A DNA stretch of 64,000 nucleotides from Polyangiaceae bacterium (GCA_050183255.1 JBFXBK010000005.1:1203-65202), one strand, 5' to 3'; positions 3,480 through 43,227 are shown, counted from the stretch's first letter. Notes: a model not told the origin generated them from the sequence alone. Numbers and translations are program-made.

Positions 3480-4883
3480 CTACACCCGCTTGTACTCTTC
3501 GACGAACTCCCAGTCGGCAATTAGCCGCTTCTTGAGCAGCAGCGAGAGCAGGGCTGCGAACATCGACTCCCAGCGGGCGTTTTCCCCGAGGATCTCCGTG
3601 GCATCCGCACCGTGGGACACGGCTCGCAGCGCCGCGACCAGATCGCGGGCCGTGAGTTGGTCTTCCCCGGACGCCGGGGGCTCCACCTCGGCTTCCGGTT
3701 CGCTGCGAGGCGATTGAGCGGAGCGCGCGGGCAGGTTGATGGTCGTTCCATCAAGCAGCGTCAGCGAGACCATGCGAGGTGTCTTGCCTGCTCTGGGCTG
3801 AGGCATCACCGCGTCTCGCGCCGGCACTCGGGAACTCTCCGGGACCGGGGTTAGGCTCCTGGGTGGTTCGTCGGGTTGTGAGGGCGCTCGGCTGCTCGGG
3901 GTCGGCTCAAGGCCAGTGTATCCAGAGTTCGGGAGCGTCCCGCTGGCATCAGTGGCTTCGGCTACCGCCGGCGGCGCTTCCGTGGGGATATCGTCCTGGC
4001 CAAGCGACGATGGTTCGAGCGGAGGGGCGTCTTCGACCGCTGGGGTCACCACATCTGGAGGATGCGAACTCGGAGGGATATTGACGCTTGGCGCGCTCGC
4101 CAGCGCAGGCGGCGGCTCGGTCTCGCCTTGATCCGGGAGCTCGCCAGCCTCGCTCGCAGCTGGCTGCTTGGTCGCGGGCGCCGCTTCGCTAGCGGCGGGT
4201 GGCTCGCTAGCAGACAGCTTAGTGCTCGGGGCTGCGACCTCCGACGCCGGCGCATCCAGCTCCGCTGGACTGAGCTCGGCGGGTGGGGCTTCGGGGCTCT
4301 CCACATGCACCTCGATGTCGAGCTCAGAGGGGACTTCCTTGCGAGGTGGCTGCGGTGGCTTTGGCGGAGGACGTTTGGGTTCCGCGGTCGTGGGCACCGC
4401 TATCGGATCCGAAGGTTCTGCGCCCCCCGCGCTGGTCGTGCCGTAGTAAACGCGAATCGCGGCGCGGATGTCCGACGGCGGTGCGATCATCGCGCGCACC
4501 GGAAGGCCACTGAACTGTCGCACTTGGTCCAGGGCTGTTTCGTCGGTTGGGTCGTCCATCGCTACGTACAGCGTTTGCCCAAGGCCGCGGACGCGGCGGA
4601 CGAAGATCGGAACCAGGCAGAACCGCTCGACGACCTGGCTCGGAACCAGGTTGAGGAGCTGCCGTGAAAAATCGATATGGTAAAGCGACACCCAAGGGAC
4701 CGAGAGCTGCTGGCTCAAGATCTGGGTGACTTGTGTCTCGGAGACCAGCCCGGACTCCACAAGTAGGGTACCGAGACGCCGACGATCCTCGCGCTGACGC
4801 TCCAGCACCTCGTCGAGCTGCTGGCGTGTGATCATTTGGGCTTCTACGAGCAGATCGCCGAGTCGGACTCTCGGGGCGGCCAT
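3480..4883 (-). CDS. Stand-alone MshEN (T2SS-E N-terminal) domain protein with a long Pro/Ala/Ser/Glu-rich linker; predicted c-di-GMP receptor
   Basis: The N-terminal ~145 aa carry two tandem copies of the RLGxxLVxxGxxxxxxLxxxLxxQ-type motif (RLGDLLVEAQMITRQQLDEVLERQ, then REDRR, then RLGTLLVESGLVSETQVTQILSQQ). About 250 aa of low-complexity P/A/S/E sequence follows, then a ~90-aa C-terminal globular region. No ATPase domain. Confidence 0.75.
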   Translation of the reverse strand: MAAPRVRLGDLLVEAQMITRQQLDEVLERQREDRRRLGTLLVESGLVSETQVTQILSQQLSVPWVSLYHIDFSRQLLNLVPSQVVERFCLVPIFVRRVRGLGQTLYVAMDDPTDETALDQVRQFSGLPVRAMIAPPSDIRAAIRVYYGTTSAGGAEPSDPIAVPTTAEPKRPPPKPPQPPRKEVPSELDIEVHVESPEAPPAELSPAELDAPASEVAAPSTKLSASEPPAASEAAPATKQPAASEAGELPDQGETEPPPALASAPSVNIPPSSHPPDVVTPAVEDAPPLEPSSLGQDDIPTEAPPAVAEATDASGTLPNSGYTGLEPTPSSRAPSQPDEPPRSLTPVPESSRVPARDAVMPQPRAGKTPRMVSLTLLDGTTINLPARSAQSPRSEPEAEVEPPASGEDQLTARDLVAALRAVSHGADATEILGENARWESMFAALLSLLLKKRLIADWEFVEEYKRV

Positions 4884-5302
4884 TGCTCTCAGGACCCTAC
4901 CCTGAAAGCCAGAACTTCCCGAGGAGAATCGCCGGGTGACGTCGTTCCAGGGTGGCTGACGAACGCTCGCATCTGAGCCACTTCAATAGGTGCTGGGCCC
5001 GAGCCGGACCTGGACGCGCCCGCAGGTTTGTCCTGGACGCTTCCGCCGAGAACCTGCCGTTCTCGATTCTGAACACCCCGAAGCATCGGATTGGAGCCTT
5101 TCCCGACAATCAGACGACGCTCCCCCCACTGACCTCCGGTGCTGTACTTCGCACCTCCCCCCCAAATTGGGAGTTTGATCCACGGGAGCCTCATGCATAA
5201 GGGCTGCTTTCACGACCGCGGTCCAGCACTCGCCTTGCTGGAAGAAAAAGTGCATCGGGTCAGGCTAGCGATGTTTCCCCTTCACCCCAAACCCGCACGG
5301 GG

Positions 5303-7975: not shown

Positions 7976-8037
7976 CCCAGCTCGAGAATGGGCACAAACC
8001 CTTTGTGACCCAGAGCGCGTGTCGCTAAACCGCGAGG

Positions 8038-9099
8038 ATGGCAGAGCAGCACCTGCCCCGCTTCGTCGCGCGCTGGGATTTGGACAAAACGTACCTGCGC
8101 ACTGAGTTCGACACTCCGCGCGACTTGATCAAGACCGCGTTGGAGCGGCCCGATCAAAAGCGCTCCGTTCCGGGCGCCGCCTCGGTCCTGCGCGAGTTGG
8201 GGCGCTCGGGAGCTTACATCCACATCCTGAGCGGGAGCCCGCGCCAGATGCGTAGCCGGCTGGAAGAGAAGCTACGCATCGATCGCGTCCGCTGGGATGA
8301 CCTCACGCTCAAGCCGAATTTCTCCAACGCGCTGCGCTTGCGTTTCCGCGCGATAAGAGACCAGCTGGGATACAAGCTGCCAGTCTTGCTGAAGAGCAAG
8401 GTCACGGAGCGCCGCGGGGAGGGCGCCGAGAACACAAGTACCCCGCTGAGCGGTCGTGAAGTGCTCGTTGGTGATGACGCGGAAGCGGATGCCTTCGTCT
8501 ACTCGCTGTTCGGCGATCTGTGCGACGGTCAGGTGGATAGCGTGCTGCTCAAGCGTATTTTGGCTGCGGGACGCGTCTACTCCGACGTCCAGACGGACTG
8601 CCTCCAGGCGCTCGGCGCGATCCGCCGCAGTCCGATGCAGCGGCGCATCCTGATCCACTTGGAGCGCCAGACGCCGCCCAGTCGCTTCAACGCCTACGGC
8701 GCTCGAGTGGTGCCGTTCTACAACTACCTCCAAGCGGCGTTCGTGCTGGGGGAGGACGGCCTGCTTGGAGCTGACGCCGTGCTGCGAGTGGCTTCGGAGT
8801 TTGCCTTGCGGCAGCGCTTCGACGCGCACTCGCTGGCGCGCAGCTACCACGACCTGATGCGTCGCGGACATGTCGCTGGCGACTTGGTTCCTCAGCTCGA
8901 GCGGAGCCTCGGCGGGTTGATCGCGAGCGGCCCGGTGCCGGCGAAAGAGAGCCTGAGCCAAATGGTCGAGACGATGCGTGGCTACGTGGAGCGTCCCCCG
9001 GAGCGGATCGAACGCCCGAGTGACGCGCGCGAGCTGGACTACGTGGAGCTCGCGCGCAGACATCGCCGTCGCCACCGCTCACCATTCTTCGAGCGCTGA
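8038..9099 (+). CDS. HAD-type hydrolase, App1-like (DUF2183 / phosphatidate phosphatase-like)
   Basis: DxDxT motif WDLDKTYL, then PGAASVLREL...IHILSGSPRQM, ...LKPN... and LVGDDAEADAFVY. This follows the App1/DUF2183 motif order. The assignment is from memory of the family pattern. Confidence 0.5.
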   Translation: MAEQHLPRFVARWDLDKTYLRTEFDTPRDLIKTALERPDQKRSVPGAASVLRELGRSGAYIHILSGSPRQMRSRLEEKLRIDRVRWDDLTLKPNFSNALRLRFRAIRDQLGYKLPVLLKSKVTERRGEGAENTSTPLSGREVLVGDDAEADAFVYSLFGDLCDGQVDSVLLKRILAAGRVYSDVQTDCLQALGAIRRSPMQRRILIHLERQTPPSRFNAYGARVVPFYNYLQAAFVLGEDGLLGADAVLRVASEFALRQRFDAHSLARSYHDLMRRGHVAGDLVPQLERSLGGLIASGPVPAKESLSQMVETMRGYVERPPERIERPSDARELDYVELARRHRRRHRSPFFER

Positions 9100-16698: not shown

Positions 16699-17535
16699 AT
16701 GTTATCGATGAAGAGTCTCCCGCTGGCGCTGATTTCCGCATGCATATGTTCAGGCGTGCTGACCTCGGCTTGCGATCAGTCGAAACCAGCACCTCCCAGT
16801 CCCTCGGGCACTGCGCCCGACGGGTCGCGCATCGAGGCGATGCGCGGTGACTGGCTCAAGCGTTGGAAGCAGTTCCCGGAACTGCCCGAGTGCACTGGTC
16901 TGGCCGAGTCAGACCGCAGTGTGTGCACCGACGCGATCGCGAAGCGCGATGCCTTGAAGGCTGGTGAAGAGAAAGCCGTTCCCGCCGCGGAGCACCTCAA
17001 GCTGGCGGCGGAGGCCGCCGACGCCGCAGCAGCGGCCGGCGAAAAGCTCGAGCTGACTTACATGCAGAAGTTGATGCTGCGCGCCGCTCCCAAAGCAGGG
17101 GAACCCGCTCCGAGCGGAGCGCCGAGCGCCGCGCCCGCTCCAAGCGTCGCCGCCGCGCCAAGCGCTGCTCCCGCACCTTCTTCGTCAGCCAAGAACGGTG
17201 TGATGGCGGCGGTCGAAGCGGCGAAACACGGTGAGTCTCGAGAGCGCGATCCGCTCCAGCTCGCTGGCTTTCAGTTCTTCAGCGCGGAGCGAGACGCGCT
17301 GCTGCGCATCGCCGGCTACATCCGCGAGGGAGCGCCGGACGATCGCGAGAAGGCGATCGAGTTGTTCAAGAAGCACGCTGAGCGCCACCCGAAGTCCGCC
17401 CGCGCGCGTCAGCTGCTCAATGAGGCCATCATCCTTGTTAGCGACAAGGCGCTTCGGGATCGCTTGCGAAAGATCCGCACCGAAATGGGCCCCGGAGCAG
17501 TACCTGCTCCGAGCGCCAGCAGTGAGAAAGAGTGA
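16699..17535 (+). CDS. Hypothetical lipoprotein with an Ala/Pro/Ser-rich segment
   Basis: MLSMKSLPLALISACICSGVLTSAC is a signal peptide with a lipobox. The low-complexity stretch APSGAPSAAPAPSVAAAPSAAPAPSS is followed by a helical C-terminus. I recognise no family. Confidence 0.6.
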   Translation: MLSMKSLPLALISACICSGVLTSACDQSKPAPPSPSGTAPDGSRIEAMRGDWLKRWKQFPELPECTGLAESDRSVCTDAIAKRDALKAGEEKAVPAAEHLKLAAEAADAAAAAGEKLELTYMQKLMLRAAPKAGEPAPSGAPSAAPAPSVAAAPSAAPAPSSSAKNGVMAAVEAAKHGESRERDPLQLAGFQFFSAERDALLRIAGYIREGAPDDREKAIELFKKHAERHPKSARARQLLNEAIILVSDKALRDRLRKIRTEMGPGAVPAPSASSEKE

Positions 17536-17587
17536 CAGTCACAAAGAGCGACAGTCGGAAAGAGTGACAGTGAGAAAAGAGTGACCC
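17527..17587 (+). repeat. Four tandem direct repeats AAAGAG(T/C)GAC(A/C)(G/C)(T/C), period 16-17 bp, between the lipoprotein stop codon and yggX
   Basis: Copies at 17527-17539, 17543-17555, 17559-17571 and 17576-17587. The first copy contains the TGA stop of the upstream gene. The last copy ends 54 nt before the yggX ATG. Confidence 0.8.
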
Positions 17588-17640
17588 AGGTGGTGGCGTG
17601 ACGGTTGACGGAGGCAGCGGAAACGACCAGAACCCACGCC

Positions 17641-17916
17641 ATGGCTCGTACCGTCAACTGCATCAAGCTCGGCCGTGAGGCGGAGGGACTCGACAAGCCC
17701 CCTTTCAAGGGCGACCTCGGTCAGCGCGTGTTCGACAACATCTCGAAGGACGCTTGGCGGGGCTGGCTCGAGCACTCGAAGATGCTGATCAACGAGTACC
17801 GGCTCGATCTCACCAGCGAGCAAGGTCAGCGGATCTGGATGACCGAGCTCGAGAAGTACTTCTGGGGTGATGGCTCGGAGCTCCCGCCCGACTTTGCTCC
17901 CGTAGACAAGGGCTGA
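17641..17916 (+). CDS. yggX: Fe(2+)-trafficking protein YggX
   Basis: MARTVNCIKLGREAEGLDKPPFKGDLGQRVFDNISKDAWRGWLEHSKMLINEYRLDL is a close match to the YggX family. I use the ATG at 17641 rather than the track start at 17605. Confidence 0.85.
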   Translation: MARTVNCIKLGREAEGLDKPPFKGDLGQRVFDNISKDAWRGWLEHSKMLINEYRLDLTSEQGQRIWMTELEKYFWGDGSELPPDFAPVDKG

Positions 17917-17976
17917 TAATCCGGCTGAGCGCCGGAGCATTGTCAGGCGCGAGCGCACCAAGTAGGCTCGCGCGCG

Positions 17977-18303
17977 ATGCTCGAGACGCTGTCCAAGGAC
18001 GACCGCCTGCTGTTGTTGAAGTTCGTGTGCGCCTTTGCGTGGGCGGACCTCCAGGTGCAGAAGCAGGAGCGTCAGTTCGTCCACCGCTTGGTCAAGCAGC
18101 TGAAGCTGGAGAAGGACGAGGCGAAGCTGGTCGACGGGTGGCTCGCCAATCCGCCAACTCCGGAGGAGGTCGATCCTGCGACCGTCCCCCGCAAGCATCG
18201 CAAGCTCTTCCTCGATACCGCGAAGAAGCTGATCGAGAGCGACGGCAACATCGATCCCAACGAAGCGGAAATCTTCGAGTTATTGGAACAGCTGCTGGTC
18301 TGA
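17977..18303 (+). CDS. TerB-like (tellurite-resistance TerB / DjlA N-terminal-like) small protein
   Basis: LLLLKFVCAFAWADLQVQKQERQFVHRLVKQL... and ...ESDGNIDPNEAEIFELLEQ resemble the two-helix-pair TerB fold pattern. Confidence 0.5.
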   Translation: MLETLSKDDRLLLLKFVCAFAWADLQVQKQERQFVHRLVKQLKLEKDEAKLVDGWLANPPTPEEVDPATVPRKHRKLFLDTAKKLIESDGNIDPNEAEIFELLEQLLV

Positions 18304-18388
18304 GCGGCGCCCGACTGGGGCGCTCTCCGGCCTTCGGGCCGACTCGAGTTGGCAAGCGCCGCTTGTTCGCGCTAAGCCCAGCGACCTG

Positions 18389-19102
18389 ATGTTGCGCCCT
18401 CTCGCAGTCATCATCGCCGCGATGTACCTCACTCGGCCGGGCATGCCGTACCCGGAGGCTGAGCGCTACGCCAAGGTGATCCAGGCGGAGGCGAGGTCAC
18501 GGGACTTCGATCCTCTGAGCGCTGTTGCGATCGTCCATTTCGAGAGCGGCCTGCTGCCCCACATGGTCAGTGACAACGGCGAGGACTACGGGCTAGGCCA
18601 GATCCGAGCTCGCTACATCGGCGCCTGCAAGTTCGATGAAGATCCGGTGAACCACCCCAGCGACGAGTGCAAGGCGGTCAAGTCGCAGCTACTCGAGGGT
18701 GAGGAAAACCTGCACTGGGTAGCGAAACTCATCTCGCGCAACCGGAAATTCTGTAAGGAAAAGACGGGGAGTGCGCTGTTTCAGCAGTGGCTCGCGAGCT
18801 ATCAGGGCCTGAACTTCCCAAAGCAGAACCGCTGGTGCCAGCCAAAGAAGAAGACTTGGCGCGTGGTGAAGTACCACGCGGCGCTCAAGCAGGAGCTGTT
18901 TGCTGGCGGAAAGCTGAAGAAGAAGCATCGCGACTTGGTCGAGCAGAAGCGCAAGGAAGCCGAAGCGGAGCGTGGCGAAGACCCGAAGCAGCCGAACGAG
19001 GCTCCTCCCCCCGAAAAGAAGCCGCCGAGTAAGTCCAAGAGCAAGCAGAACGCCGCGCTGCGCTCCGCCAGCGAACTCGTGATGCGCGTGACGGAGCTCT
19101 AA
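18389..19102 (+). CDS. Lytic transglycosylase (SLT domain) with a Lys-rich C-terminal tail
   Basis: Catalytic-Glu motif IVHFESG, then YGLGQI and ...ASYQG. The C-terminal tail is KKKHRDLVEQKRKEAEAERGEDPKQPNEAPPPEKKPPSKSKSKQ. Confidence 0.7.
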   Translation: MLRPLAVIIAAMYLTRPGMPYPEAERYAKVIQAEARSRDFDPLSAVAIVHFESGLLPHMVSDNGEDYGLGQIRARYIGACKFDEDPVNHPSDECKAVKSQLLEGEENLHWVAKLISRNRKFCKEKTGSALFQQWLASYQGLNFPKQNRWCQPKKKTWRVVKYHAALKQELFAGGKLKKKHRDLVEQKRKEAEAERGEDPKQPNEAPPPEKKPPSKSKSKQNAALRSASELVMRVTEL

Positions 19103-32749: not shown

Positions 32750-33217
32750 CTAGGCCGCGCAGCGAGTGAGGTCGCTGCTTCGATGCGTGTGAGACGCTGC
32801 AGCGCCTCTGCGCCAGGCACCGGGACGCACGCCGAAGTGACGATAGAAGGCGCGGCTGAGCGCGAACTCGGAGTCGTAGCCCACCTCGTCGGCGATGGCG
32901 GCGAGGCCCTCGTCGGTCTCCAGGAGTAGCCGCGATGCCTTTTCCATGCGGAACTCGCGAAGCACACTGAGCGGCGGCTTACCGAGCGCCTCGTTGAAGC
33001 GACGGTTCAACACAGGGCGTGACGTGCCGAGCTCCTTCGCGATCGACTCAACCGTCCAGCGGGTGTCGGGACGAGCGCGGAACAGCTCGAGGGCCGCACT
33101 CACCAATGGATCCGCGTCGCCCGCGATCTCCGACTCGGCTTCCGCGGCGGGCTCGATGTGTTCCTCGCTGTACGGTTGTTCGCGGTCTTGCCCCATTGGC
33201 TGATCATTGCGCCTCAC
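32750..33217 (-). CDS. AraC-family transcriptional regulator (HTH domain only, 155 aa)
   Basis: WTVESIAKELGTSRPVLNRRFNEALGKPPLSVLREFRMEKASRLLLETDEGLAAIADEVGYDSEFALSRAFYRHFGVRPGAWRR is a canonical double-HTH AraC domain. Confidence 0.85.
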   Translation of the reverse strand: MRRNDQPMGQDREQPYSEEHIEPAAEAESEIAGDADPLVSAALELFRARPDTRWTVESIAKELGTSRPVLNRRFNEALGKPPLSVLREFRMEKASRLLLETDEGLAAIADEVGYDSEFALSRAFYRHFGVRPGAWRRGAAASHTHRSSDLTRCAA

Positions 33218-33316
33218 CCCCGACCCGCAAGCCCCGAGCGTTTTGGGTATGCGATTGCGTGGGTTTTGAGCGCCTTGGTCATGGGCGAAACGCGCGAAGT
33301 CCGTCAGTTCTCAGGC

Positions 33317-33910
33317 ATGCCTAAGAAGAGCGAGCCTGACAGAGATCCCAAGAAGCCCGAGGCCTCGCGCATGGCGCAGCTCGGTGAGCGCTTGTTCGCG
33401 ACGCGTACCTTGCTGGTGTTTGGGGAGATCACGATGGATGTGGCGGAGCTCACGAGCGCGCAGCTCCTCGCGCTGGCGGCGGACGGTGATCGCCCGATCC
33501 GCCTGGTGATTCACTCGCCGGGCGGTCATGTGGAGAGCGCTGACACGATCTTCGACTTGGTGCGCGCCATCCCAGCGCCAGTGTCGATGATCGGGACCGG
33601 TTGGGTCGCGAGCGCAGGTGCGTTGATCTACTCGAGCGTGCCTCGAGAGAGGCGGTTCGCCTTACCCAACACGCGCTTCCTCTTGCACCAGCCCCTTGGC
33701 GGTATGAGTGGTCCCGCTGCAGACGTGGAGATCGAGGCGCGTCAGATTGGTCTCATGCGGAAACGCCTGATCAAGACCTTTGCTGAAGCGACGGGGCAGA
33801 CGGAAGAGCGGATCGAGCGTGACAGCGATCGCAACTACTGGCTCACTGCACCGGAGGCCGTCGAGTACGGCTTGGTGGGACGCGTGATCAGTGGGTTGGG
33901 GGAGGTGTGA
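33317..33910 (+). CDS. clpP: ClpP-family serine protease subunit (paralogue, no clpX adjacent)
   Basis: Motifs IRLVIHSPGGHV, GWVASAGALI (Ser nucleophile context), RFLLHQPLGG (His) and DRNYWLTAPEAVEYGLV. The start is ambiguous (ATG at 33317 or 33281). Confidence 0.8.
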   Translation: MPKKSEPDRDPKKPEASRMAQLGERLFATRTLLVFGEITMDVAELTSAQLLALAADGDRPIRLVIHSPGGHVESADTIFDLVRAIPAPVSMIGTGWVASAGALIYSSVPRERRFALPNTRFLLHQPLGGMSGPAADVEIEARQIGLMRKRLIKTFAEATGQTEERIERDSDRNYWLTAPEAVEYGLVGRVISGLGEV

Positions 33911-34042: not shown

Positions 34043-35317
34043 CTAGCGAGGGACCGACACCATCGCCGTGCGCTCGCCCTGATGCGCCGGATCGTCCTTG
34101 CGGAACAGCAGCGTGAAGGCGATGAAGCCGACCCACAATGCGGCGAGGTGATGCAGCATCGGCGCTCCTCCGAGGCGCTCGAACAGCGCGCTCGAGACGG
34201 GCGGACCTATCAGCATGCCCGCGGCGTAGAACGCGTTGTAGATCGCGGTTGCGCGGCTGTAGTCCTTTGAAGGAACCACCAAGCCCTGGAGGGCGAGGCT
34301 CATGGGGGAAATGCTGGCGAGGGTGGCGCCAGCGACGAACACCGCGCCGAGCATCAGCGGGAAGCTGTCGAGCCAAGCAAACGAAGCGATCATCACGGTG
34401 CCAATGATCGCGAGGGTGCGCATCGTGATCAGGTGCCCGAAGCGATCCCCGATACGGCCCGCGGGATTCGTAAACAGCACCATGCCGAGGGCGAAGCATG
34501 CAGTGACGTAGATCGTGTCTGCCTTGCTGACGTGCTTGTCGGTCATCAAGAACAGCGGCAGAAAGAGCACGACGCTGGCCTGGAAGTAGCCGTACGCGAA
34601 GGTCGCGAAGCAGCTGGTCTTGATACGCCAGAGCACACCCAGGCTGCCAAGCTCCTTGGGTTCATGGGATGGGTCTACGGCTGCACGCTCTGGCTGAGCT
34701 TCGACGGACTCTGCAGCGTCAGGCGCCGCGCGATCGTCGGTGCCTATTTCCGCGTGGCGACTCAGGAAGACGAGGAAGTAGACGGCCACCGCAAGGGCCA
34801 GCGCGCCTGCGACGCTGAAGGCGGCTGACAGCGGCCACACGGTAGCCAAGCCTCGGCTCACCAGAGGCCCTAGGATGTAGCCCAGCGCCATGAAGACGGC
34901 GTACAAGCTGGTGACGAGCGCCTTCTGACCCGGCTGCGCGCGCGCCAGGAGCACTGTCTCACAGCTCACCCAAATGCTGACGGACGCAGCTCCGTCGATG
35001 AACCGGAGCCCAGCGATACCGTAGAAGTTGGTTACGTGGGGAAACGCCAGAGTCACCACCGCGTAGGCAGCTACGGCACAGGTAACGAGCGCTTTGGCTG
35101 AAAAGCGCCGAATCAATGCGCCGGCGGGGATGCTCAGGCAGACGATGCCGCCTGCGAAGGCAGCGGCCAGGTTGCCAATCTCGCGCTTCTGGAAGCCGCG
35201 CTCATCGAGGTACACCGCGATCACGCTCAGCGCGACTCCGTACGCCAGCCCGAGCGCCAACGTGCCCAGGTACACGTGACGAATGTCCGGGTCTTTGAGG
35301 GGATTGGTCGAGCTCAC
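34043..35317 (-). CDS. MFS transporter
   Basis: About 12 hydrophobic segments. MFS motif-A-like GALIRRFSAK and AGRIGDRFGH occur in the two halves. Confidence 0.8.
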   Translation of the reverse strand: MSSTNPLKDPDIRHVYLGTLALGLAYGVALSVIAVYLDERGFQKREIGNLAAAFAGGIVCLSIPAGALIRRFSAKALVTCAVAAYAVVTLAFPHVTNFYGIAGLRFIDGAASVSIWVSCETVLLARAQPGQKALVTSLYAVFMALGYILGPLVSRGLATVWPLSAAFSVAGALALAVAVYFLVFLSRHAEIGTDDRAAPDAAESVEAQPERAAVDPSHEPKELGSLGVLWRIKTSCFATFAYGYFQASVVLFLPLFLMTDKHVSKADTIYVTACFALGMVLFTNPAGRIGDRFGHLITMRTLAIIGTVMIASFAWLDSFPLMLGAVFVAGATLASISPMSLALQGLVVPSKDYSRATAIYNAFYAAGMLIGPPVSSALFERLGGAPMLHHLAALWVGFIAFTLLFRKDDPAHQGERTAMVSVPR

Positions 35318-35396
35318 GGCGGCACCGTCGTACTACAAACGCGAACGGGCGCGAGACTCCTCGCGCCCGTTCACTACTTCGTTGCCTCGCGCTACC

Positions 35397-37277
35397 TCAC
35401 TCGGCGGCGATCGGCGCTGCCTCGGCGGTGTTCGCGGCGCCGCCGAAGCGCAGCTTCACCTTTCCTAGCAACGACTCCGCGGCTTCCGGCGCGCGCTCCT
35501 TGGCGATCTCGAGGAGCTCCGCGCTCGCCTGCAAGCTCAGATCCGCTGCGGCCTTGGCGCGGCTCGGCCCGTTCTCAAGCCAACCCTTGGTGGTTGCGCC
35601 GAGCCAGCTCGCCGCGCCCTTCGCCCCCCGCACCACGCGCTGCACGCGCGTGGTCTGCATGCGATCGATGATCTCGTGCGCGGCGTCGGTCGCGGTACTG
35701 CCCGCCTTGTGGGGGGAGCGATGCAGGGCGTTCGCGTACTTCGGGTGCTCCGCGAGGTATGCGCGCAGCTCGTCTTCCGTGATACCGGCGTCCTTCAGTG
35801 CCTTGGCGAACTCGTCCGCCGCAGCCTGCTTGGCCTTGAACAGGTACATTTGCACGCGGGAATAGAAGTTCACCGCGCCGTCGCCGCTGGTCTCCACCGC
35901 GCAGAAGATGGTGCCGGGGAAGCGCTCACCGATCAGCGACTGCACGCCGTCGCTGACGCTCGAGCTCGGCATGCAACCGAAGGGCTTCACGCTGAGGGTC
36001 ATGTTGGCCTTGTTCTTGACCACGTTGAGGATCAGCTTGCCGACCTCCATGTGACCTTCACCGCCGCGCAGATCGTTGTTGTAGAACGGCATCGCGACCT
36101 CGGCGACTTCGTCCATGTCAGGCAGGTGGTAGTCGTAGAAGCCTACGGCGCGGGCGAAGGTGTGGAAGATGACGCGCAGCGCGCGGTCAGCGACCAGCAG
36201 CGCGACGCGACGAGTGAACACGCCATACTCGCCGAGCTCCGAGAGGCCGCTCTTCGCGGTATCGACGCCTCGCAGATCTTTGCGGTTCTCCGTGTCGAAG
36301 CTGACTTCCCAGATGTTGTAAAGCAGCCATGCCGTGAGGAACTGGATGTCACACTCGGCGCCTTCGGTCTCCACGAAGCGCTGCAACGCGTAGTTGCCGT
36401 CGCCTTCAGTGGTCATGGCCCAGAACTCACCAATGATGGCGACCTTCGGCTTGAGGCGCAGGCGGTCCACCGGGATGGCTTCGAACCACTTGCGGCTGCG
36501 GCGTAGCGCGAGGAGCACCGACTTGCCCGCCTTGAGCGCGTCGTAGCACTCCTTCTTGGCGCGCTCGACGACCTCGTCGGTCTCGCCCTTGTTCACCTCG
36601 TAGGGGCGGATGCGGTAGGCCATGCCGTTGATCACGTCACCGGCCAGCAGGCTGCGCACCAAGGTGATGAAGAACTTCGGGTTCATCTCGAGCCCGCTCT
36701 CTTCGCCCGTTGCTTGGCTCAAGCCGCCTTGCTGCTGGAACAGCATCACGCGGAAGCCGTCGAAGCCAGCGTCGCGCAGCGCCTTGCGGTACTCCGTCAC
36801 GTACATGCCGAAGCGACAGGGGCCGCAAGCGCCGGCAGTCAGGAACACGAACTTGTCGATGATCTCCTGGCTATCCATGCCCTTCTTGTCGCGCAGCTCG
36901 ATTAGGAACTTCACGAGGTTCCCCACGGTAAAGTAGGTGGGGTTACACTGAGCGCGGTTGCCGAACTCCTTGCCAACCTGGAGAGCCGCGTTGTCCGGCA
37001 CATCCATCGCGATCACGTTGTAGCCGAGGCTCTGCAGGCCGCCTTCCACCAGGTAGTCGTGGGCCATGGTCAGGCCGCCGACGAGCAGCGTGATCTTGGC
37101 CTTTTCGCTCTTGGTGAAGCCGAGGTCCGCCATGTCCTCGATCCACTGCTTCTCGTCTTTGAGGCCGAGGCGTTCGCGTTCTGTGGCTTCGAACTTTGCG
37201 AGCTCCGCGTCCATGTCGAAATCGCCGCCCACGACGGGCAGGCTGCGCTTGGTTCCGAGGTCGATGTGCTGTGTCAT
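35397..37277 (-). CDS. 2-hydroxyacyl-CoA dehydratase-like subunit (BCR/HAD family, HgdB/DUF2229-related)
   Basis: Family-typical Cys contexts GNRAQCNPTYF and LTAGACGPCRFGMY. The gene sits 33 nt downstream of the activase-fusion gene on the same strand. Confidence 0.7.
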   Translation of the reverse strand: MTQHIDLGTKRSLPVVGGDFDMDAELAKFEATERERLGLKDEKQWIEDMADLGFTKSEKAKITLLVGGLTMAHDYLVEGGLQSLGYNVIAMDVPDNAALQVGKEFGNRAQCNPTYFTVGNLVKFLIELRDKKGMDSQEIIDKFVFLTAGACGPCRFGMYVTEYRKALRDAGFDGFRVMLFQQQGGLSQATGEESGLEMNPKFFITLVRSLLAGDVINGMAYRIRPYEVNKGETDEVVERAKKECYDALKAGKSVLLALRRSRKWFEAIPVDRLRLKPKVAIIGEFWAMTTEGDGNYALQRFVETEGAECDIQFLTAWLLYNIWEVSFDTENRKDLRGVDTAKSGLSELGEYGVFTRRVALLVADRALRVIFHTFARAVGFYDYHLPDMDEVAEVAMPFYNNDLRGGEGHMEVGKLILNVVKNKANMTLSVKPFGCMPSSSVSDGVQSLIGERFPGTIFCAVETSGDGAVNFYSRVQMYLFKAKQAAADEFAKALKDAGITEDELRAYLAEHPKYANALHRSPHKAGSTATDAAHEIIDRMQTTRVQRVVRGAKGAASWLGATTKGWLENGPSRAKAAADLSLQASAELLEIAKERAPEAAESLLGKVKLRFGGAANTAEAAPIAAE

Positions 37278-37310
37278 GTCAGGTTCCCTCTTTGATTCCT
37301 TGCAATCGCT

Positions 37311-40300
37311 TCACTCGGCGGCCGTCGCGCCGCGCTCGTTAGGAAGTTTGGTGGGGACGATGCTGCCGTCCTCTTGCTTGCGTCCAAGCCGGACCATGCC
37401 CTTCGGCAGCTCCGGTGGCTTTTCTAGTCGGGTCTCGTAGGCGAGCACGCGCGAGCGGACCTCGGCGATCTGTTCGGCGATCTCGTTGTCGCTCTCACGC
37501 ACACCCAAGAGCTGCTTCCGCTTCATCTCGAGCAGCTCCAGTCGCTTCTTGTCGATGGCGTGGCTGAGGGCGTCGCGCTTGCGCGAGACGTCCTCTAGGG
37601 CCTCTTGGCGCAGCCGCAAGGAGTGAGCGTAAGTCTTCACGCGGATCTTGATGCTGCCGCCTGGCTTGTTTGCGTCCAGGTCGTGGAGCGCCGCGGAAGG
37701 CGTGCGTGCTGTCTGGACGATCGAATCCACCATGCCGTAGGTGGGTGCGTCGTGGCCGCATTTGAAGCTCGAGAGATCGAGCACGCAGACGTTCGGGTGG
37801 TGCGCGGCGAAGCTAGCTGCCCAGACCTTCTGCGCGCTGTTGGCGGAGTAGTTCTCCGGCCACACGTGGTTCAGCTCCAAGGGGTCTTTGATGAGTCCCG
37901 ACTCCAGCTCCTTCTTGAAGTAGCGTGAGAGGTACTCCTTGTCCTTCGGGATGCTGCGGATGCTCAGGATCGGGTACCCCAGCACCTGGAATTCCTCGGG
38001 GATACCGTGGTTGAGGCCCGGGTCCGAGTGATAGGGGCGGTTCAGCACCAAGATCGCGATGCGGTTCTCCGCTTCGACGGTCTCGAGGATCGCGCGACCC
38101 TTGTCTTGGAGATCGAGCTCGAAGGCTTCGAGTGCCTTGAAGGCCTCGCGGCACGCGTGGTCGTTCTCGTCTTCTGTCACGCCCAGGCGCTCCGCCCAGG
38201 TCTCGAACATGCGCCGCGTCAGGAGCAGGGGCTCGGCGAAAGACAGCGCCGGGCTCAGGTACTCGATGTTCCGTACGGCAAAGAAGTCGAGCTCCTTCGT
38301 GAACGCCGCCTTCATCACATCCGGCGTACCCGCGACGATGGGACAGCTGGTGTTGTCCATCGTGTCCTTCACGAACGAAGGCACATGCGTGAGGATTGGG
38401 AAGAAGATGTAGTTCAGCGGGCGCTTACGCTCGGGTTCATGCTTGTGGAAGAGCAGATTGTGGATGTGCGCCTGCGCGACCTTCGAGGGGAAGCACGGGT
38501 CGATGCTGCCGTACTTGCCGCCCTCGACCCACATGTCCTCGTCGGTGTGCTCGCTGAAGATGACGTTCGTCTTCGGGATGCCGAGCGCCTCGAAGTACGC
38601 GCGGAAGAACGGCGCCGTGGAGTAGATGTTGAGCACCCGAGGCAAGCCGATGCGGATGTTCTTGCGTTTCCGTGCGGCTTCTTCGCTCGAGCGCTGGAAG
38701 GGTCGAGTTACCGTACGACGCTTGATACGGAAGAGGCCCTGGGTGACCTGGACGTCTTCAACCGGGCTGCCCGCCTCGGGCATCGCCTCGCCCTTGTAGA
38801 ACGAAGCAAACGCGCGCTTCGACTCGTAGTCCACCAGGTTCGGGAACTGCTTCGCCGTCTTCTTGCGCTCGGCGACCAGGTCGAGCATCGCCTCCTTGCT
38901 CTCCACAGTGCCCTTCTCGCAGGAGAAGCCGGCGATGTAGCGGCTAGTCGAGCCGTCGGGGCGCTTGGTGTCGATGAACGTGCGCTTGCACTCGTTCGGA
39001 CAGAAGTGACAGACGGTGCTCTCGTCGGTGGTGGTCTTGTAATCGAGATCCAGCGTGGCCTGGATGCCGATGTAGCGCGAGGTGCCGGTACGCTTGTAGC
39101 GCCGCAGCGTTTCCATCGCTGCGCCGATGGCGCCGGCTTCTCCCGTGTGAGGATGGACGTACACCTCGGCGCCGGGCACGCGCTCCTTGATGTAGTCGAC
39201 CTGCGCCTTGACCGCCGCGAGGTTGTACTGCGTGCCGCCCTGGAGCACGAACTTTCTCCCCAGGGAAGCGAGTCGGGGGATCTGCACCACGTACTGCCAT
39301 ACGTTCTTCGGCAGCACCTGGGCGAGCCCGGCGAGCAGCTCCTGCTTCTGATAGCCTTCCTTCTGGAAGTTCACGCGGTCGCTATCGAGGAACACCGCGC
39401 AGCCGTAGCTGAACTTCGGCGCTAGCTCCGCTTGGAAGGCGACCTCCGCGTAGTCCGTGACTGGCAGACCGAACTGGTCCGCCATTGCCTGCAGCAGCAT
39501 GCCGTTGCCGGCGCTGCAGGAGTTCGAGAGCTTGAAGTTCTCGATGTCGCCGTTCTTCATGAACAGCACCTTGATGTCCTGTCCGCCGATGTCGCAGATC
39601 ACGTCGACGTCGCCGAAGAAATGCACGGCGCTCATCATGTGAGCCACGGTCTCGACGATGTTTACATCGGCGAGCACCGTTTCCTCGAGGACATCGGCTG
39701 CGTACCCGGTGGCACCAAAACCGATCACCTCGAGCTTTGCACCTTGGCCCTCCACTTGCTCGCGCAAGCTGGTGAGCAGCTCCTTCGTGTCGAGGATCGG
39801 GTTCCCCTTGGAGAGCTGGTACGCCTTCGCGAGGATCTCCCCATCTTCACCCACCAGCACGGCCTTGCTGGAGGTCGAGCCGCCGTCGAGGCCGATCACC
39901 GCGCGCACCGACTGACCGGGCTCGAACTTCGCTGCGACGAACTTCGGGATCTTGTAGGTGTCGACGAAGCTCTCGGTCTCGCTCTGATCGGCGCTGAGCG
40001 GTGGGCCCGCTTGTTCACCCAGCCGTTCACGGCGCCCATGGGTGATGAAGTTCTTGAGGTCGTCGAGCCCCTTGAACCGCCCGACTTCGCTCTGATCCGT
40101 GCCGACCTCCGCCTTGCCAAAGGCAGCAGCGCCGAAGGCCGCGTACAGCTCGGCGTTCTTCGGCACGAAGATCAGCTCCTCGATCGGCACGTCCTTCGGG
40201 AACTCGTAGCCGCGGTCGCGCCACGTCTCTGGGATGCGCTTACGCCAGCAGTCCTGCAAGAACGGCAGATAGGTGTTCGGGCCACCGAGCAACAGCACGC

Positions 40301-40964
40301 GGTCCTTCAACGTGTTTCCGCGGGTCAACACGCTCAGGTTCTGCATCACGATGGCGTCTGCCAGCGAGTTCAGCACCTCGTCCTTCGGGATGCCCGCCTT
40401 GACCAGGTTCACGATGTCCGTCTCGGCGAACACGCCACACTTCGCCGCCACGTGGTGCAGCTTCTCGTCGTCGAAGCGCAGCTGATTGGCGAAGCCCGGC
40501 TCGGCGTGCACCTTGATCATGCACTTGTCGATCGTCGCGCCGGTGCCTGAAGCGCACTTGTCGTTCATCGACGCGATCGCCGTCTTCTGGCCGGTGTTCT
40601 TGTCGACCTTGAAGATGATGATCTTCGCGTCCTGGCCACCCAGCTCGACGACGGAGTTCACGTCAGGGTGGAGCTTCTCCACTGCCAGCGTGACCGCGTT
40701 CACCTCCTGCACGAACTTGGCGCCGGTGGGCGCCGCGATCGGAGAGGAGCCCGAGCCGGTGCAGAACATCCGCCAGCCGTCGCTCGGGTGATCGGGGAAC
40801 GCTGCGAGGATCGCCTCGAGTAGCTCCAGCACCTTCTCCGGTTGCTTGGTGTGGTGACGCTGATAGTCACTCCACAAGATCTCTTCGCTGGTTGGGTCGA
40901 TGACCACCGCCTTCACGGTGGTCGAGCCCACGTCCATGCCGATGACGAGCTCTCTGGCCTGCAT
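37311..40964 (-). CDS. Fusion of two BadF/BadG/BcrA/BcrD-type activase ATPase domains with a dehydratase-like (DUF2229) C-terminal region
   Basis: ATPase domain 1 carries VIGMDVGSTTVKAVV, NDKCASGTGATID and AAKCGVFAETDIV. ATPase domain 2 carries VIGLDGGSTSSKAVL, SNSCSAGNGMLLQ and YGCAVFLDSDRV. A CHFCPNEC cluster-type motif follows, then a long C-terminal domain. Confidence 0.8.
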   Translation of the reverse strand: MQARELVIGMDVGSTTVKAVVIDPTSEEILWSDYQRHHTKQPEKVLELLEAILAAFPDHPSDGWRMFCTGSGSSPIAAPTGAKFVQEVNAVTLAVEKLHPDVNSVVELGGQDAKIIIFKVDKNTGQKTAIASMNDKCASGTGATIDKCMIKVHAEPGFANQLRFDDEKLHHVAAKCGVFAETDIVNLVKAGIPKDEVLNSLADAIVMQNLSVLTRGNTLKDRVLLLGGPNTYLPFLQDCWRKRIPETWRDRGYEFPKDVPIEELIFVPKNAELYAAFGAAAFGKAEVGTDQSEVGRFKGLDDLKNFITHGRRERLGEQAGPPLSADQSETESFVDTYKIPKFVAAKFEPGQSVRAVIGLDGGSTSSKAVLVGEDGEILAKAYQLSKGNPILDTKELLTSLREQVEGQGAKLEVIGFGATGYAADVLEETVLADVNIVETVAHMMSAVHFFGDVDVICDIGGQDIKVLFMKNGDIENFKLSNSCSAGNGMLLQAMADQFGLPVTDYAEVAFQAELAPKFSYGCAVFLDSDRVNFQKEGYQKQELLAGLAQVLPKNVWQYVVQIPRLASLGRKFVLQGGTQYNLAAVKAQVDYIKERVPGAEVYVHPHTGEAGAIGAAMETLRRYKRTGTSRYIGIQATLDLDYKTTTDESTVCHFCPNECKRTFIDTKRPDGSTSRYIAGFSCEKGTVESKEAMLDLVAERKKTAKQFPNLVDYESKRAFASFYKGEAMPEAGSPVEDVQVTQGLFRIKRRTVTRPFQRSSEEAARKRKNIRIGLPRVLNIYSTAPFFRAYFEALGIPKTNVIFSEHTDEDMWVEGGKYGSIDPCFPSKVAQAHIHNLLFHKHEPERKRPLNYIFFPILTHVPSFVKDTMDNTSCPIVAGTPDVMKAAFTKELDFFAVRNIEYLSPALSFAEPLLLTRRMFETWAERLGVTEDENDHACREAFKALEAFELDLQDKGRAILETVEAENRIAILVLNRPYHSDPGLNHGIPEEFQVLGYPILSIRSIPKDKEYLSRYFKKELESGLIKDPLELNHVWPENYSANSAQKVWAASFAAHHPNVCVLDLSSFKCGHDAPTYGMVDSIVQTARTPSAALHDLDANKPGGSIKIRVKTYAHSLRLRQEALEDVSRKRDALSHAIDKKRLELLEMKRKQLLGVRESDNEIAEQIAEVRSRVLAYETRLEKPPELPKGMVRLGRKQEDGSIVPTKLPNERGATAAE

Positions 40965-41060
40965 CCTGAATTCCCCTTCGATCGATCCGCGTAGCGCGGG
41001 GCCCGGGTCGGGCGGCGCCGAGCTCTCCGCTAGCCCGGTGCTGGAACGCTAACCTGAACT

Positions 41061-41078
41061 GACGCTGACGTCAGTGTC
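41061..41078. promoter_or_regulatory. 18-bp near-perfect palindrome GACGCTGACGTCAGTGTC (candidate operator)
   Basis: One mismatch, centred on ACGT. It lies ~100 nt upstream of the activase-fusion start (40964, minus strand) in a 365-bp lower-GC intergenic region. Confidence 0.35.
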
Positions 41079-41273: not shown

Positions 41274-41293
41274 GACTGACACGAGCGTCAGTC
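41274..41293. promoter_or_regulatory. Inverted repeat GACTGAC-N6-GTCAGTC (candidate operator; shares the CTGAC/GTCAG half-sites with 41061..41078)
   Basis: Perfect 7-bp arms, located 37 nt upstream of the GTG start at 41330. Confidence 0.3.
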
Positions 41294-41329: not shown

Positions 41330-42511
41330 GTGAGCGCGCGGGCAGGTTCGCTGGCGATTTGGGGATGTGTCACGGCGCTGTGCGTCCTGGGCTGCGACAA
41401 GGACAAGCCAGAGCCACCCGCCGCGCCGTCGGGCGCGCTGCCCAAGGCGCTGATGGGAGTCACCCTGGCCAGTCGCAATGGCTTCGACCTGGCGCTGGGC
41501 AGCGACGGCTTCGAGTTGGTCTGGGGCGCTCCTCCCCCCCAAGAGAAGGCGCAGCGACCCGGGCAGAAATCCATTGCCGGGGGGATTTGGTCGCGAAGGT
41601 TCGACTCCGGCGCCCATGCCGTCGAGGCGCCACGCAAGCTCTTCGAGCTAGCCTCTGGTCACGAGCTTGGCGAAGTCGAAGCGCTCTCTCTCAGCGAACG
41701 ACTCGCAGTGGGGTGGACCGAGCGTGACGCCTCAGGCTACGAAGTTCGGGGTTGGTTGGGGGAGGGTGAGACGGAAGTGATGGCGCCCACCACCCTGGGG
41801 AGCAATGAGGCGAGCGCGAACGTGCGTGGCAACCTACGGCTCTTGACCTCCCGCGGGAGACCGACGGTATTTTTCCGTGGGGCAAGTGGTGATTGCCCGA
41901 CCGGCGTGGCCAGCAAGGACGAGCGCTGTGCTGCGGTGCAGTTCGTCAGCCTGGAGCCAGAAGGACCGAAACCCCGGCGCGGGCCGCTCTCAGTACCGAG
42001 TCCGTGCCCCGCTGCCATCGTGGGCGTCAGCATGAGCGACAAAACGTGGCAGTATGCGTTGTGCTCGTGGAAGGACGGCAAGGTCGATACGACGCTTTTC
42101 TCTGTGGATTTTAACCCGCAGTATGCACGAGCAGTGGAACTCGAGCAGGGCTGCGCGCCCCTGGGCGGTGTGGACGCTGGCAGGGACATCCTGCTCGGCT
42201 TCGACTGCGGCGGCACCCGCAAGTTGGCGGTGGTGAGGGATACTCAAGTGCCGGAGCCGACCCGGGACATGAGCGATGCGCGCCTCGGCTGCGAGCTGGG
42301 GCACCTGACGTTTCACGCCGCAGACTTCAACCAGGTGTTCTCGGAGCCTCAGCGAAACCTCGAGGTGCTGCTGCCCGCGGCCATGCAGCGCCCGGGGATC
42401 CGTGCCGTGTGGACCGGGGTGAGCCTCGTGATGGCGTACCCGATTGGGAACGACTTGGTGTTGGAAGTGCATTCCTGTCAGCAGGGCAAACTATTGCCGT
42501 CGAGCCCGTAG
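41330..42511 (+). CDS. Hypothetical lipoprotein
   Basis: GTG start. SARAGSLAIWGCVTALCVLGC is a signal peptide with a lipobox. The beta-rich sequence has repeated ...G...V.W... segments. I recognise no family. Confidence 0.6.
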   Translation: MSARAGSLAIWGCVTALCVLGCDKDKPEPPAAPSGALPKALMGVTLASRNGFDLALGSDGFELVWGAPPPQEKAQRPGQKSIAGGIWSRRFDSGAHAVEAPRKLFELASGHELGEVEALSLSERLAVGWTERDASGYEVRGWLGEGETEVMAPTTLGSNEASANVRGNLRLLTSRGRPTVFFRGASGDCPTGVASKDERCAAVQFVSLEPEGPKPRRGPLSVPSPCPAAIVGVSMSDKTWQYALCSWKDGKVDTTLFSVDFNPQYARAVELEQGCAPLGGVDAGRDILLGFDCGGTRKLAVVRDTQVPEPTRDMSDARLGCELGHLTFHAADFNQVFSEPQRNLEVLLPAAMQRPGIRAVWTGVSLVMAYPIGNDLVLEVHSCQQGKLLPSSP

Positions 42512-42549
42512 TCGACAGCCAAGGTGGATCCGCGCTATTTCCGCAAGTG

Positions 42550-43227
42550 ATGGCGTCCAAGCGCAGTACCAAGACGAAGCCTGCTGGCGCAGCCCGGCCG
42601 AAGCCAGCCGATCGTCAGGCGCGGCGTCAGCAAATCCTAGAAGCCGCCCGCGTGGTCTTCGCCAAGCGTGGCTATCACCAGACCACCATCGAGCACATCG
42701 TGGCTGAAGCCGGGGTGGCTCGCGGTACCTTCTACTTGTACTTCGAAGACAAGCGGTCGGTGTTTGGTGAGTTGATTGATCGCTTCAGCGCTCGTATCTC
42801 GATGGCGATCAGCAGCATCGTGTTGGACGACCCAGCACGCAACGTCGCGGAACAGGCGCGCGGAAACATCCACGCGATCATCGGGCTCGCACTGCAGGAA
42901 CGCGAGATGACGAAGATCCTGTTCACTGACGCCGTGGGGCTGGATCCCGGTTTTGACCGTAAGCTGTACAGTTTCTACGACGAAGTAGTGCAGCTATTGA
43001 CCGAGAGTCTGAGACAGGGCCAACGCCTCGGCATCGTGGCGGACGGCGAGCCGCGCGTGCTCGCGTACCTGACGATCGGGGCGCTGAAGGAGCTCTTGAC
43101 GCAAGTGGTCACGCTTGGGCTCACCGCCGACAGCGCCGAGGTGCTGACGGCTCAGCTGTATGATTTCCTGAGCCAAGGCTATCTGCGCGTGGAACCCGCG
43201 GCAGCGGGACGCAAGCGTGGGCGATAG
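42550..43227 (+). CDS. TetR-family transcriptional regulator
   Basis: RQQILEAARVVFAKRGYHQTTIEHIVAEAGVARGTFYLYFEDKRSVF is a canonical TetR HTH. I use the ATG at 42550, because the track start at 42409 overlaps the upstream gene. Confidence 0.85.
   Translation: MASKRSTKTKPAGAARPKPADRQARRQQILEAARVVFAKRGYHQTTIEHIVAEAGVARGTFYLYFEDKRSVFGELIDRFSARISMAISSIVLDDPARNVAEQARGNIHAIIGLALQEREMTKILFTDAVGLDPGFDRKLYSFYDEVVQLLTESLRQGQRLGIVADGEPRVLAYLTIGALKELLTQVVTLGLTADSAEVLTAQLYDFLSQGYLRVEPAAAGRKRGR

Follow-up and report, generated by a model that had tools for sequence, protein, structure and literature searches.

A two-gene locus of Polyangiaceae encodes a probable PlsA/PlsR-like, ATP-driven iron-sulfur reductase that may act on a lipid ester

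Positions 35,397 to 40,964 of a 64,000-nucleotide (nt) stretch of DNA from a Polyangiaceae bacterium (GCA_050183255.1, JBFXBK010000005.1:1203-65202; the whole stretch is called the window below) hold two adjacent genes that resemble the benzoyl-CoA reductases (BCR), the 2-hydroxyacyl-CoA dehydratases (HAD) and the double-cubane-cluster proteins (DCCP). The same window contains the 2-oxoglutarate dehydrogenase genes sucA, sucB and lpd, the full set that an initial annotation of this DNA had reported. The locus raises the question of what such an enzyme reduces and what it does in an aerobe. The enzyme class and the electron path can be assigned with high confidence. The wider reading, in which the genes form a two-gene, TetR-repressed operon for a PlsA/PlsR-like, ATP-driven, low-potential iron-sulfur reductase whose substrate would be a lipid ester, is drawn by analogy with characterised enzymes, and we regard the case for it as evenly balanced. 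The genes and protein parts are located as follows (aa, amino acids; AF2, AlphaFold2).

37311-40964, minus strand: gene 1, 1217 aa, a fusion of Act1, Act2, linker cluster and Red1, the candidate equivalent of PlsA (open reading frame, translation, Pfam).
35397-37277, minus strand: gene 2, 626 aa, the Red2 subunit, candidate equivalent of PlsR (translation, fold).
40095-40946, minus strand: Act1, first HgdC/BcrAD-type ATPase domain, residues ~7-290 (aligned to HadI 4eht and HgdC 1hux).
39090-39899, minus strand: Act2, second ATPase domain, residues ~356-625 (1hux, E = 1.9e-27).
38919-39011, minus strand: linker motif C652-x2-C655-x3-C659...C682 (invariant in alignments A2 and A4).
37620-38654, minus strand: Red1, DUF2229 or HAD/BCR/DCCP-fold domain, residues ~771-1115 (PF09989, AF2 and Foldseek).

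The two genes are separated by 33 nt. In Pfam, the gene 1 protein matches PF01869 (BcrAD_BadFG) twice (E = 2e-70) and PF09989 (DUF2229) over residues 771-1003 (E = 2.3e-48), a combination referred to here as BBD, and the NCBIfam domain model TIGR00241 ("acyl-CoA dehydratase activase") exceeds its own cutoff. Act1 carries the motifs NDKCASGTG (C137) and AAKCGVFAE (C176), and Act2 carries SNSCSAGNG (C483) and YGCAVFLDS (C522). The cluster ligands C127 and C166 of HgdC (1hux) align with C137/C176 in Act1 and with C483/C522 in Act2, and all four residues are invariant among 21 homologues. Because both pairs match the HgdC ligands, the tandem can form an intramolecular version of the HgdC dimer, and the alignment strongly supports Act1 and Act2 as its putative counterpart, in which the four Cys would suffice for one bridging [4Fe-4S] cluster. 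The linker motif that follows (CHFCPNEC, C652/655/659, with C682) is predicted to bind a further [4Fe-4S] cluster, placed between the ATPase module and Red1.

The remainder of gene 1 and the whole of gene 2 were assigned by fold. For gene 1 residues 630-1217, the AF2 model has a predicted local distance difference test (pLDDT) score of 79.6, and the top Foldseek matches of Red1 are DCCP (7yyl/7yzm), HadC (3o3n_B) and BzdNO (8s02), at probability 1.0. Its only invariant core Cys are C824, C874 and C1069. Searches of Pfam, NCBIfam and PDB sequences gave no match for gene 2, the AlphaFold model of which (pLDDT 67, with a helical tail of low confidence) matches DCCP (7yzm/6eno), HadC (3o3m_B) and BzdNO (8s02) at probability 1.0 and nothing else convincingly. 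Gene 2 contains the motifs RAQCNPT (C111) and AGACGPCRFG (C151/C154); of its Cys, only C111, C154 and C435 stay invariant when Red2 family members down to 28% identity are aligned. The template modelling scores of the Red1 and Red2 matches are low (0.3-0.5) and stand for a fold assignment, not a detailed superposition. The models strongly support Red1 and Red2 as probable HAD/BCR/DCCP-fold subunits with three invariant Cys each, on which clusters are predicted. The two are not detectable sequence paralogues (hhalign probability 0.2%, with just the first-Cys motif aligned), and their kinship rests on fold. No transmembrane segment was found in either protein. Both proteins end in AAE (window 37314-37322 and 35400-35408) after variable helical tails modelled with low confidence. 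In the Polyangia loci, 51 of 81 Red2 proteins have the ending AAE or AEE and 30 of 72 BBD proteins the ending AAE or PAE, whereas Bacillales homologues are without it; it may be a C-terminal recognition or docking tag. The initial annotation had described two open reading frames of these positions and sizes, the Cys motifs quoted above, two complete ATPase domains with cluster-bridging Cys, a DUF2229-like C-terminal region, a dehydratase-like second protein and membership of the BCR/HAD superfamily. All of these descriptions are borne out, that of the second protein at the level of fold.

Among the characterised families, the closest likeness is to the plasmalogen synthases PlsA/PlsR. Listeria carries active pls orthologues (PMC9702350), and on this statement the single-gene protein of Listeria monocytogenes (1475 aa) was taken to stand for the PlsA family; the sequences of C. 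perfringens and E. faecalis PlsA and of Ger lay outside the comparison. Gene 1 aligns with the Listeria protein over residues 9-1121 (29% identity, E = 5e-124), and residues 54-484 of gene 2 align with its residues 999-1401 (23%, E = 2e-27), so that the order Act1-Act2-Red1 followed by Red2 is co-linear in the Listeria protein and the window pair. All 14 of the window's ligand Cys face a Cys in the Listeria protein (C137, C176, C483, C522, C652/655/659/682, C824, C874 and C1069 in gene 1; C111, C154 and C435 in gene 2), whose linker, CNLCSNTC...GNRC, has the same CxxCxxxC...C spacing. The initial annotation had made its reading depend on such Cys being conserved in characterised relatives, as they are here and in HgdC. 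A two-gene form from Fusobacterium (985 + 404 aa) is split at the same junction, and PlsA/PlsR likewise lacks a transmembrane segment and has an adjacent TetR gene in some species. Within the window's own clade, fusions of Red2 with the BBD protein occur (P0245 and P0296), in the orders BBD+Red2 (1579 aa) and Red2+BBD (1623 aa). In a maximum-likelihood tree, the window clade and the PlsA-like proteins form two deep clades (support 100/100); the PlsA-like proteins of Listeria, Collinsella, Acetoanaerobium, Fusobacterium and Subdoligranulum share 46-55% identity with one another and 28-30% with the window protein. The window pair, as placed by this tree, is not an orthologue of PlsA, which agrees with the earlier view that it is no clear orthologue of a characterised enzyme.

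The family is widespread. The top matches belong to Polyangiaceae and to metagenome-assembled genomes (MAGs) of other Myxococcales, at 77-97% identity for gene 1 and 65-93% for gene 2, and homologues number in the thousands. A profile search for the Red2 family, with one genome per species, gave at least 595 loci, and the best 80, for which the composition is known, all belong to Myxococcota of class Polyangia. Cultured aerobes among these 80 include Sorangium cellulosum So0157-2 and So ce26, three other Sorangium strains, two strains of Enhygromyxa salina, Polyangium sp. 6x1 and P. jinanense. Apart from Anaeromyxobacter, myxobacteria are said to be obligate aerobes (PMC9131029). A pair with 67% and 55% identity is found in Brevibacillus laterosporus (tblastn against a plasmid collection that includes some mislabelled chromosomes), and a search from its protein recovered the family, at 77-91% identity, from Brevibacillus brevis, B. 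borstelensis, many Paenibacillus, Aneurinibacillus migulanus, Alicyclobacillus dauci, Cohnella, Domibacillus, Evansella and Anaerobacillus. Identity across the clade is 62-91% over two phyla, and a remoter Red2 relative (39%) occurs in a Flavobacteriales MAG. The window sequence itself is present in landfill, wastewater and activated-sludge metagenomes, which are habitats of fluctuating oxygen. The initial annotation had called the pair unexpected in an organism that otherwise looks aerobic; an aerobe does carry it, but the occurrence is no quirk of one genome, being shared by Polyangia and many aerobic or facultative Bacillales.

The Bacillales and myxobacterial versions are 62-67% identical over ~1150 residues, and in the tree the Bacillales adjoin a Kofleriaceae/PRO3 myxobacterial subclade with weak support (84/76), which suggests an old transfer in which the whole pair may have moved between phyla. 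Such a transfer, together with the 67% identity of Firmicute and myxobacterial versions, could also be expected of a decaying or silent acquisition with no present function in aerobes. This explanation is very improbable, and conservation effectively refutes it: both reading frames are intact and have the highest third-position G+C content of the region (0.87-0.88), thousands of homologues are retained at 65-97% identity with every ligand invariant, and synteny and the operator described below are conserved. Transcript contigs point the same way. In a wastewater metatranscriptome (run X8), contigs at least 95% alike over both genes (35500-40500) have a word depth of 15-35, compared with 0-3 for the flanking MFS, TetR and sucA genes and ~2-11 in a DNA run of the same study, and one 529-nt piece is identical to the window. 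This is weakly suggestive of expression, contig depth being a poor measure to which relatives may contribute. All the parts of an ATP-driven electron-injection enzyme are present, and strong selection acts on them.

The features that concern the operon and its regulation are the following.

42547-43227, plus strand: TetR-family regulator, ~226 aa, start codon uncertain (Pfam TetR_N).
41059-41074, unstranded: operator-like palindrome CTGAC-N6-GTCAG, 110 nt upstream of the gene 1 start.
41276-41291, unstranded: second copy of CTGAC-N6-GTCAG, near the divergent lipoprotein/TetR side.
35341-35374, minus strand: terminator-like hairpin with a 15-bp stem and 11 G-C pairs (consensus scan, pattern match only).

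Gene neighbourhoods were counted in 83 loci, open reading frames were clustered over ~85 loci, and sites were sought in 62 upstream regions. Where a locus has sufficient flank, the Red2 gene is in essentially all cases immediately preceded by the BBD gene, and a TetR gene occurs near the pair in 44 of the 83, usually as the immediate divergent neighbour of gene 1 (e.g., in Sorangium and Polyangium). The initial annotation had suggested an analysis of conserved gene neighbours; carried out here, it leaves TetR as the one recurrent partner, clustering having returned neither an electron donor nor lipid genes, both of which were sought. The gene for a major facilitator superfamily (MFS) transporter (34043-35317) was rejected as a third member of the operon, since it follows the pair in just 8 of the 83 loci and is separated from it by the strong terminator-like hairpin, which sits just past the gene 2 stop codon. 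Gene 1, gene 2 and TetR make up the functional unit. The extended palindrome, (A)CTGAC-N6-GTCAG(T), lies upstream of gene 1 exactly in 34 of 62 loci and with at most one mismatch in 42 (0.02 and 0.85 in shuffles), mostly 50-110 nt ahead of the start codon. It tracks the presence of TetR (37 of 44 loci with TetR, 5 of 16 without; Fisher p = 2e-4, uncorrected for phylogeny).

The best NCBIfam match of the regulator, under its cutoff, is the acyl-CoA-responsive, Bacillus-type FadR (NF053878, E = 2.6e-15, nearly full length). A FadR-like TetR repressor probably releases the predicted ACTGAC-N6-GTCAGT operator on binding a lipid-type ligand. A TetR gene also lies directly upstream of the PlsA-like gene in Collinsella and beside pls in E. 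faecalis (PMC9702350). The window and Collinsella regulators are not detectably orthologous, and the association of TetR with both families may be convergent, because only their helix-turn-helix regions are alike, and weakly so (E = 0.001). Between the operon and TetR, the window has a 393-aa lipoprotein-like reading frame without a family match (41330-42511, plus strand), a relative of which, covering at least half its length by tblastn, is found in only one of the 83 loci. A small protein with a CxxCxxCC domain (PF03692) is encoded after TetR, on the same strand, in several relatives, Sorangium cellulosum among them (locus L001, 7653-8207; locus L040, 3817-4461); it is absent from the window.

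A reaction path can be proposed by analogy with HgdC/HAD, DCCP-R/DCCP and PlsA/PlsR. Electrons would come from a donor in the cell, for which one natural fusion hints at an NAD(P)H-linked flavo-iron-sulfur protein as a possibility, and their potential would be lowered through ATP hydrolysis by Act1 and Act2. They would then pass by way of the linker cluster to the three-Cys clusters of a Red1/Red2 heterodimer, where the substrate carbonyl would bind an open iron site and be reduced through a ketyl radical. Chemistry has been proposed for PlsA/PlsR (PMC8788747). In the fusion (locus L089, 3436-7251), a Red2 that is 60% identical to gene 2 and directly follows a BBD gene is joined to a GltD-like NADPH oxidoreductase with Fer4_20, Pyr_redox_2 and two Fer4 domains, a possible clue to the physiological electron donor. 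An attached NADPH oxidoreductase suggests stoichiometric electron input and would thus point to net reduction, not dehydration, because redox-neutral dehydration requires just a catalytic electron.

This fusion bears on a second explanation, in which the pair would be a 2-hydroxyacyl-CoA dehydratase with a built-in activator, carrying out the redox-neutral dehydration of 2-hydroxy fatty acyl-CoA, for example in sphingolipid or ornithine-lipid turnover. Database names do label gene 2 a "2-hydroxyglutaryl-CoA dehydratase", both Red domains match HadBC structures, and sphingolipids, along with other unusual lipids, are abundant in Sorangium membranes (PMC8618801, citing Keck et al., 2011). The dehydratase explanation is nevertheless improbable: besides the electron input that the fusion argues for, neither window protein matches PF06050 (HGD-D) at E <= 0.01, and no CoA-transferase or 2-hydroxyacid dehydrogenase, the context of amino-acid fermentation, occurs in the window or the ~85 related loci, nor are acyl-CoA genes linked to the pair. 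To our knowledge, the Bacillales carriers are also not known for 2-hydroxy lipids.

For the PlsA/PlsR-like reductase, the most likely substrate by analogy would be the sn-1 acyl ester of a membrane glycerolipid, converted to a vinyl-ether or alkyl-ether lipid as by PlsA/PlsR and Ger. PlsA yields vinyl ethers and Ger alkyl ethers, both from sn-1 esters (PMC9702350, PMC13159169). This substrate is the likeliest because enzymes of the same architecture act on it, the pair is self-contained, the regulator is FadR-like and TetR genes lie near pls in E. faecalis and Collinsella. Indeed, all characterised enzymes of the exact fused architecture use lipid esters (PMC13159169).

Several observations weigh against a PlsA/PlsR-like enzyme acting on a lipid ester. 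Neither the ~85 loci nor three Bacillales contexts (B. brevis, P. thiaminolyticus and A. dauci, which have no gene in common) hold a conserved lipid gene beside the pair, and no FNR/CRP-type site, a sign of anaerobic induction, was found in the 62 upstream regions. The hosts are mostly obligate aerobes, and the NADPH-oxidoreductase fusion is a single metagenomic contig. We know of no report of plasmalogens or Ger-type ethers in Paenibacillus or Brevibacillus. PlsA and Ger are oxygen-sensitive and have been reported from anaerobes or facultative anaerobes (PMC13159169, PMC12838417). Orthology and substrate are not established, because identity to PlsA-like proteins is only ~29% for gene 1 and 22-26% for gene 2 and the longest internal branches of the tree separate the two clades.

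Some of these observations lend weight to a third explanation, in which the enzyme is the same ATP-driven Red1/Red2 radical reductase and the resemblance to PlsA/PlsR is architectural only. Instead of a membrane glycerolipid ester, the substrate could then be a soluble thioester, ester or carbonyl compound, reduced or dehydroxylated by aerobic soil bacteria. The deep separation of the clade at 29% and 23% identity, the lack of conserved lipid genes nearby and aerobic hosts not known for a reductive ether-lipid route are all in keeping with it, as is the very different range of substrates used by other BCR/HAD members. However, no catabolic or CoA-handling gene accompanies the pair in any of the ~85 loci, and high conservation over two phyla with no pathway context fits the self-contained modification of a universal component such as a membrane lipid. 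The regulator is nearest the acyl-CoA-sensing FadR type, and the record of lipid esters as substrates of this fused architecture (PMC13159169) also speaks for a lipid. We consider a non-glycerolipid substrate a real but less favoured possibility, and the lipid ester remains the preferred reading.

Other neighbours of the pair vary from genome to genome. In Brevibacillus laterosporus B9 (locus L002), the pair lies just downstream of a lantibiotic-dehydratase/nitroreductase peptide cluster (4161-8684) and 2.5 kb upstream of diacylglycerol-kinase-like and monogalactosyldiacylglycerol-synthase-like genes (16719-18760). The latter two were seen near the pair in this one Brevibacillus genome and were absent from the B. 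brevis, P. thiaminolyticus and A. dauci contexts. Two genes downstream of the operon in the window (32750-33910), an extra ClpP paralogue is divergent to a short AraC-type regulator, a pair that is not conserved near the operon in relatives.

Reductive ether-lipid enzymes are taken as markers of anaerobes and facultative anaerobes, and gene screens for ether lipids and branched glycerol dialkyl glycerol tetraethers depend on this (PMC13159169, PMC11868695). Plasmalogen synthesis by way of CarF is said to occur only in Cystobacterineae (PMC9131029), and class Polyangia reportedly lacks the oxygen-dependent desaturase CarF. Glycerol ether lipids are reported from Sorangium (PMC8618801, citing Keck et al., 2011); elbD could account for them as well. 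It is conceivable, though rather unlikely, that Polyangia and many aerobic Bacillales use an oxygen-tolerant or microoxically induced PlsA/PlsR-like enzyme to make vinyl- or alkyl-ether lipids reductively. If true, an "anaerobic" ether-lipid route would run in obligate aerobes, and plasmalogen-type lipids would extend beyond one myxobacterial suborder. Either the reductive route reaches oxic organisms, where the survival of a low-potential iron-sulfur machine would need explaining, or the family represents a new substrate class for the PlsA/PlsR-type architecture. Both outcomes are testable, given a self-contained pair and the genetic tools available for Sorangium (PMC12391302) and Bacilli. 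Enzymes of this kind are already known, earlier work having counted BBD proteins from Myxococcota MAGs among the Ger homologues (PMC11868695). Undescribed in the literature searched are a separate, very highly conserved two-gene sister family, its presence throughout Polyangia, in cultured myxobacteria that are obligate aerobes and in aerobic Bacilli, and the predicted dedicated TetR and operator that accompany it. Nothing relevant came from literature searches for the family in Paenibacillus, Brevibacillus or Sorangium, or for ether and vinyl-ether lipids of Sorangiineae and Nannocystineae.

Of the families that the initial annotation had listed, PlsA/PlsR shares the whole architecture and Cys set, whereas HAD, BCR and DCCP each lack or contradict defining features. 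With the BCR/HAD superfamily at large, the pair shares an HgdC/BcrAD-type ATPase with two Cys per protomer and two HgdAB/BcrBC/DCCP-fold domains with invariant Cys. The 2-hydroxyacyl-CoA dehydratases (HgdAB/HgdC, HadBC/HadI) have the same activator ATPase fold and cluster Cys, and their alpha and beta subunits have the fold of Red1 and Red2. In the window, however, the activator takes the form of a fused pseudo-dimer that is joined to Red1 and has an additional four-Cys motif, and membership of this family fails on the PF06050 match, the separate homodimeric activator and the genomic context. DCCP and its reductase DCCP-R (E. coli YjiM/YjiL) provide the top structural matches of both Red domains (7yyl, 7yzm, 6eno), and the ATP-dependent reductase partner belongs to the same family. 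DCCP differs in that it is homodimeric and its reductase is a protein apart; E. coli yjiL matches the ATPase part only, at ~25% identity, and the three invariant Cys of each Red domain are too few for the ligand count of an [8Fe-9S] double cubane. The class I benzoyl-CoA reductases (BcrABCD, BzdNOPQ, MbdONPQ) have homologous ATPase subunits (matches to 9gai_C/D), and the BzdNO fold is that of Red1 and Red2, but these enzymes consist of four separate subunits. No aromatic-degradation genes lie near the window pair, and gene 1 scores 78-116 bits against the BcrA, BcrD and BzdQ equivalog models of NCBIfam, the cutoffs of which are 313-578.

The lipid-ester enzymes are nearer. PlsA/PlsR and Ger are defined by two PF01869 domains, one PF09989 domain and a further reductase or dehydratase part (PMC13159169, PMC12838417, PMC9702350). 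Ger (T. maritima Tmari_0479; D. alkenivorans SHJ90043) has this published BBD core, which gene 1 also has. It is a single polypeptide, with small PF06050 and PF09989 matches in its tail, whereas the tail is here a separate gene without a Pfam match, and Ger is stated to be limited to anaerobes (PMC13159169). PlsA/PlsR occurs as two genes in C. perfringens (CPE1194/1195) and as single-gene PlsA in E. faecalis, L. cremoris and Listeria. From these forms the window pair differs in a gene 2 that is ~200 aa longer than the 404-aa Fusobacterium partner and in a clade of hosts that are obligate aerobes or aerobic Bacilli. Among the characterised enzymes compared, with Ger considered by description only, the plasmalogen synthases PlsA/PlsR are the closest to the window pair, as judged from domain order and ligand Cys.

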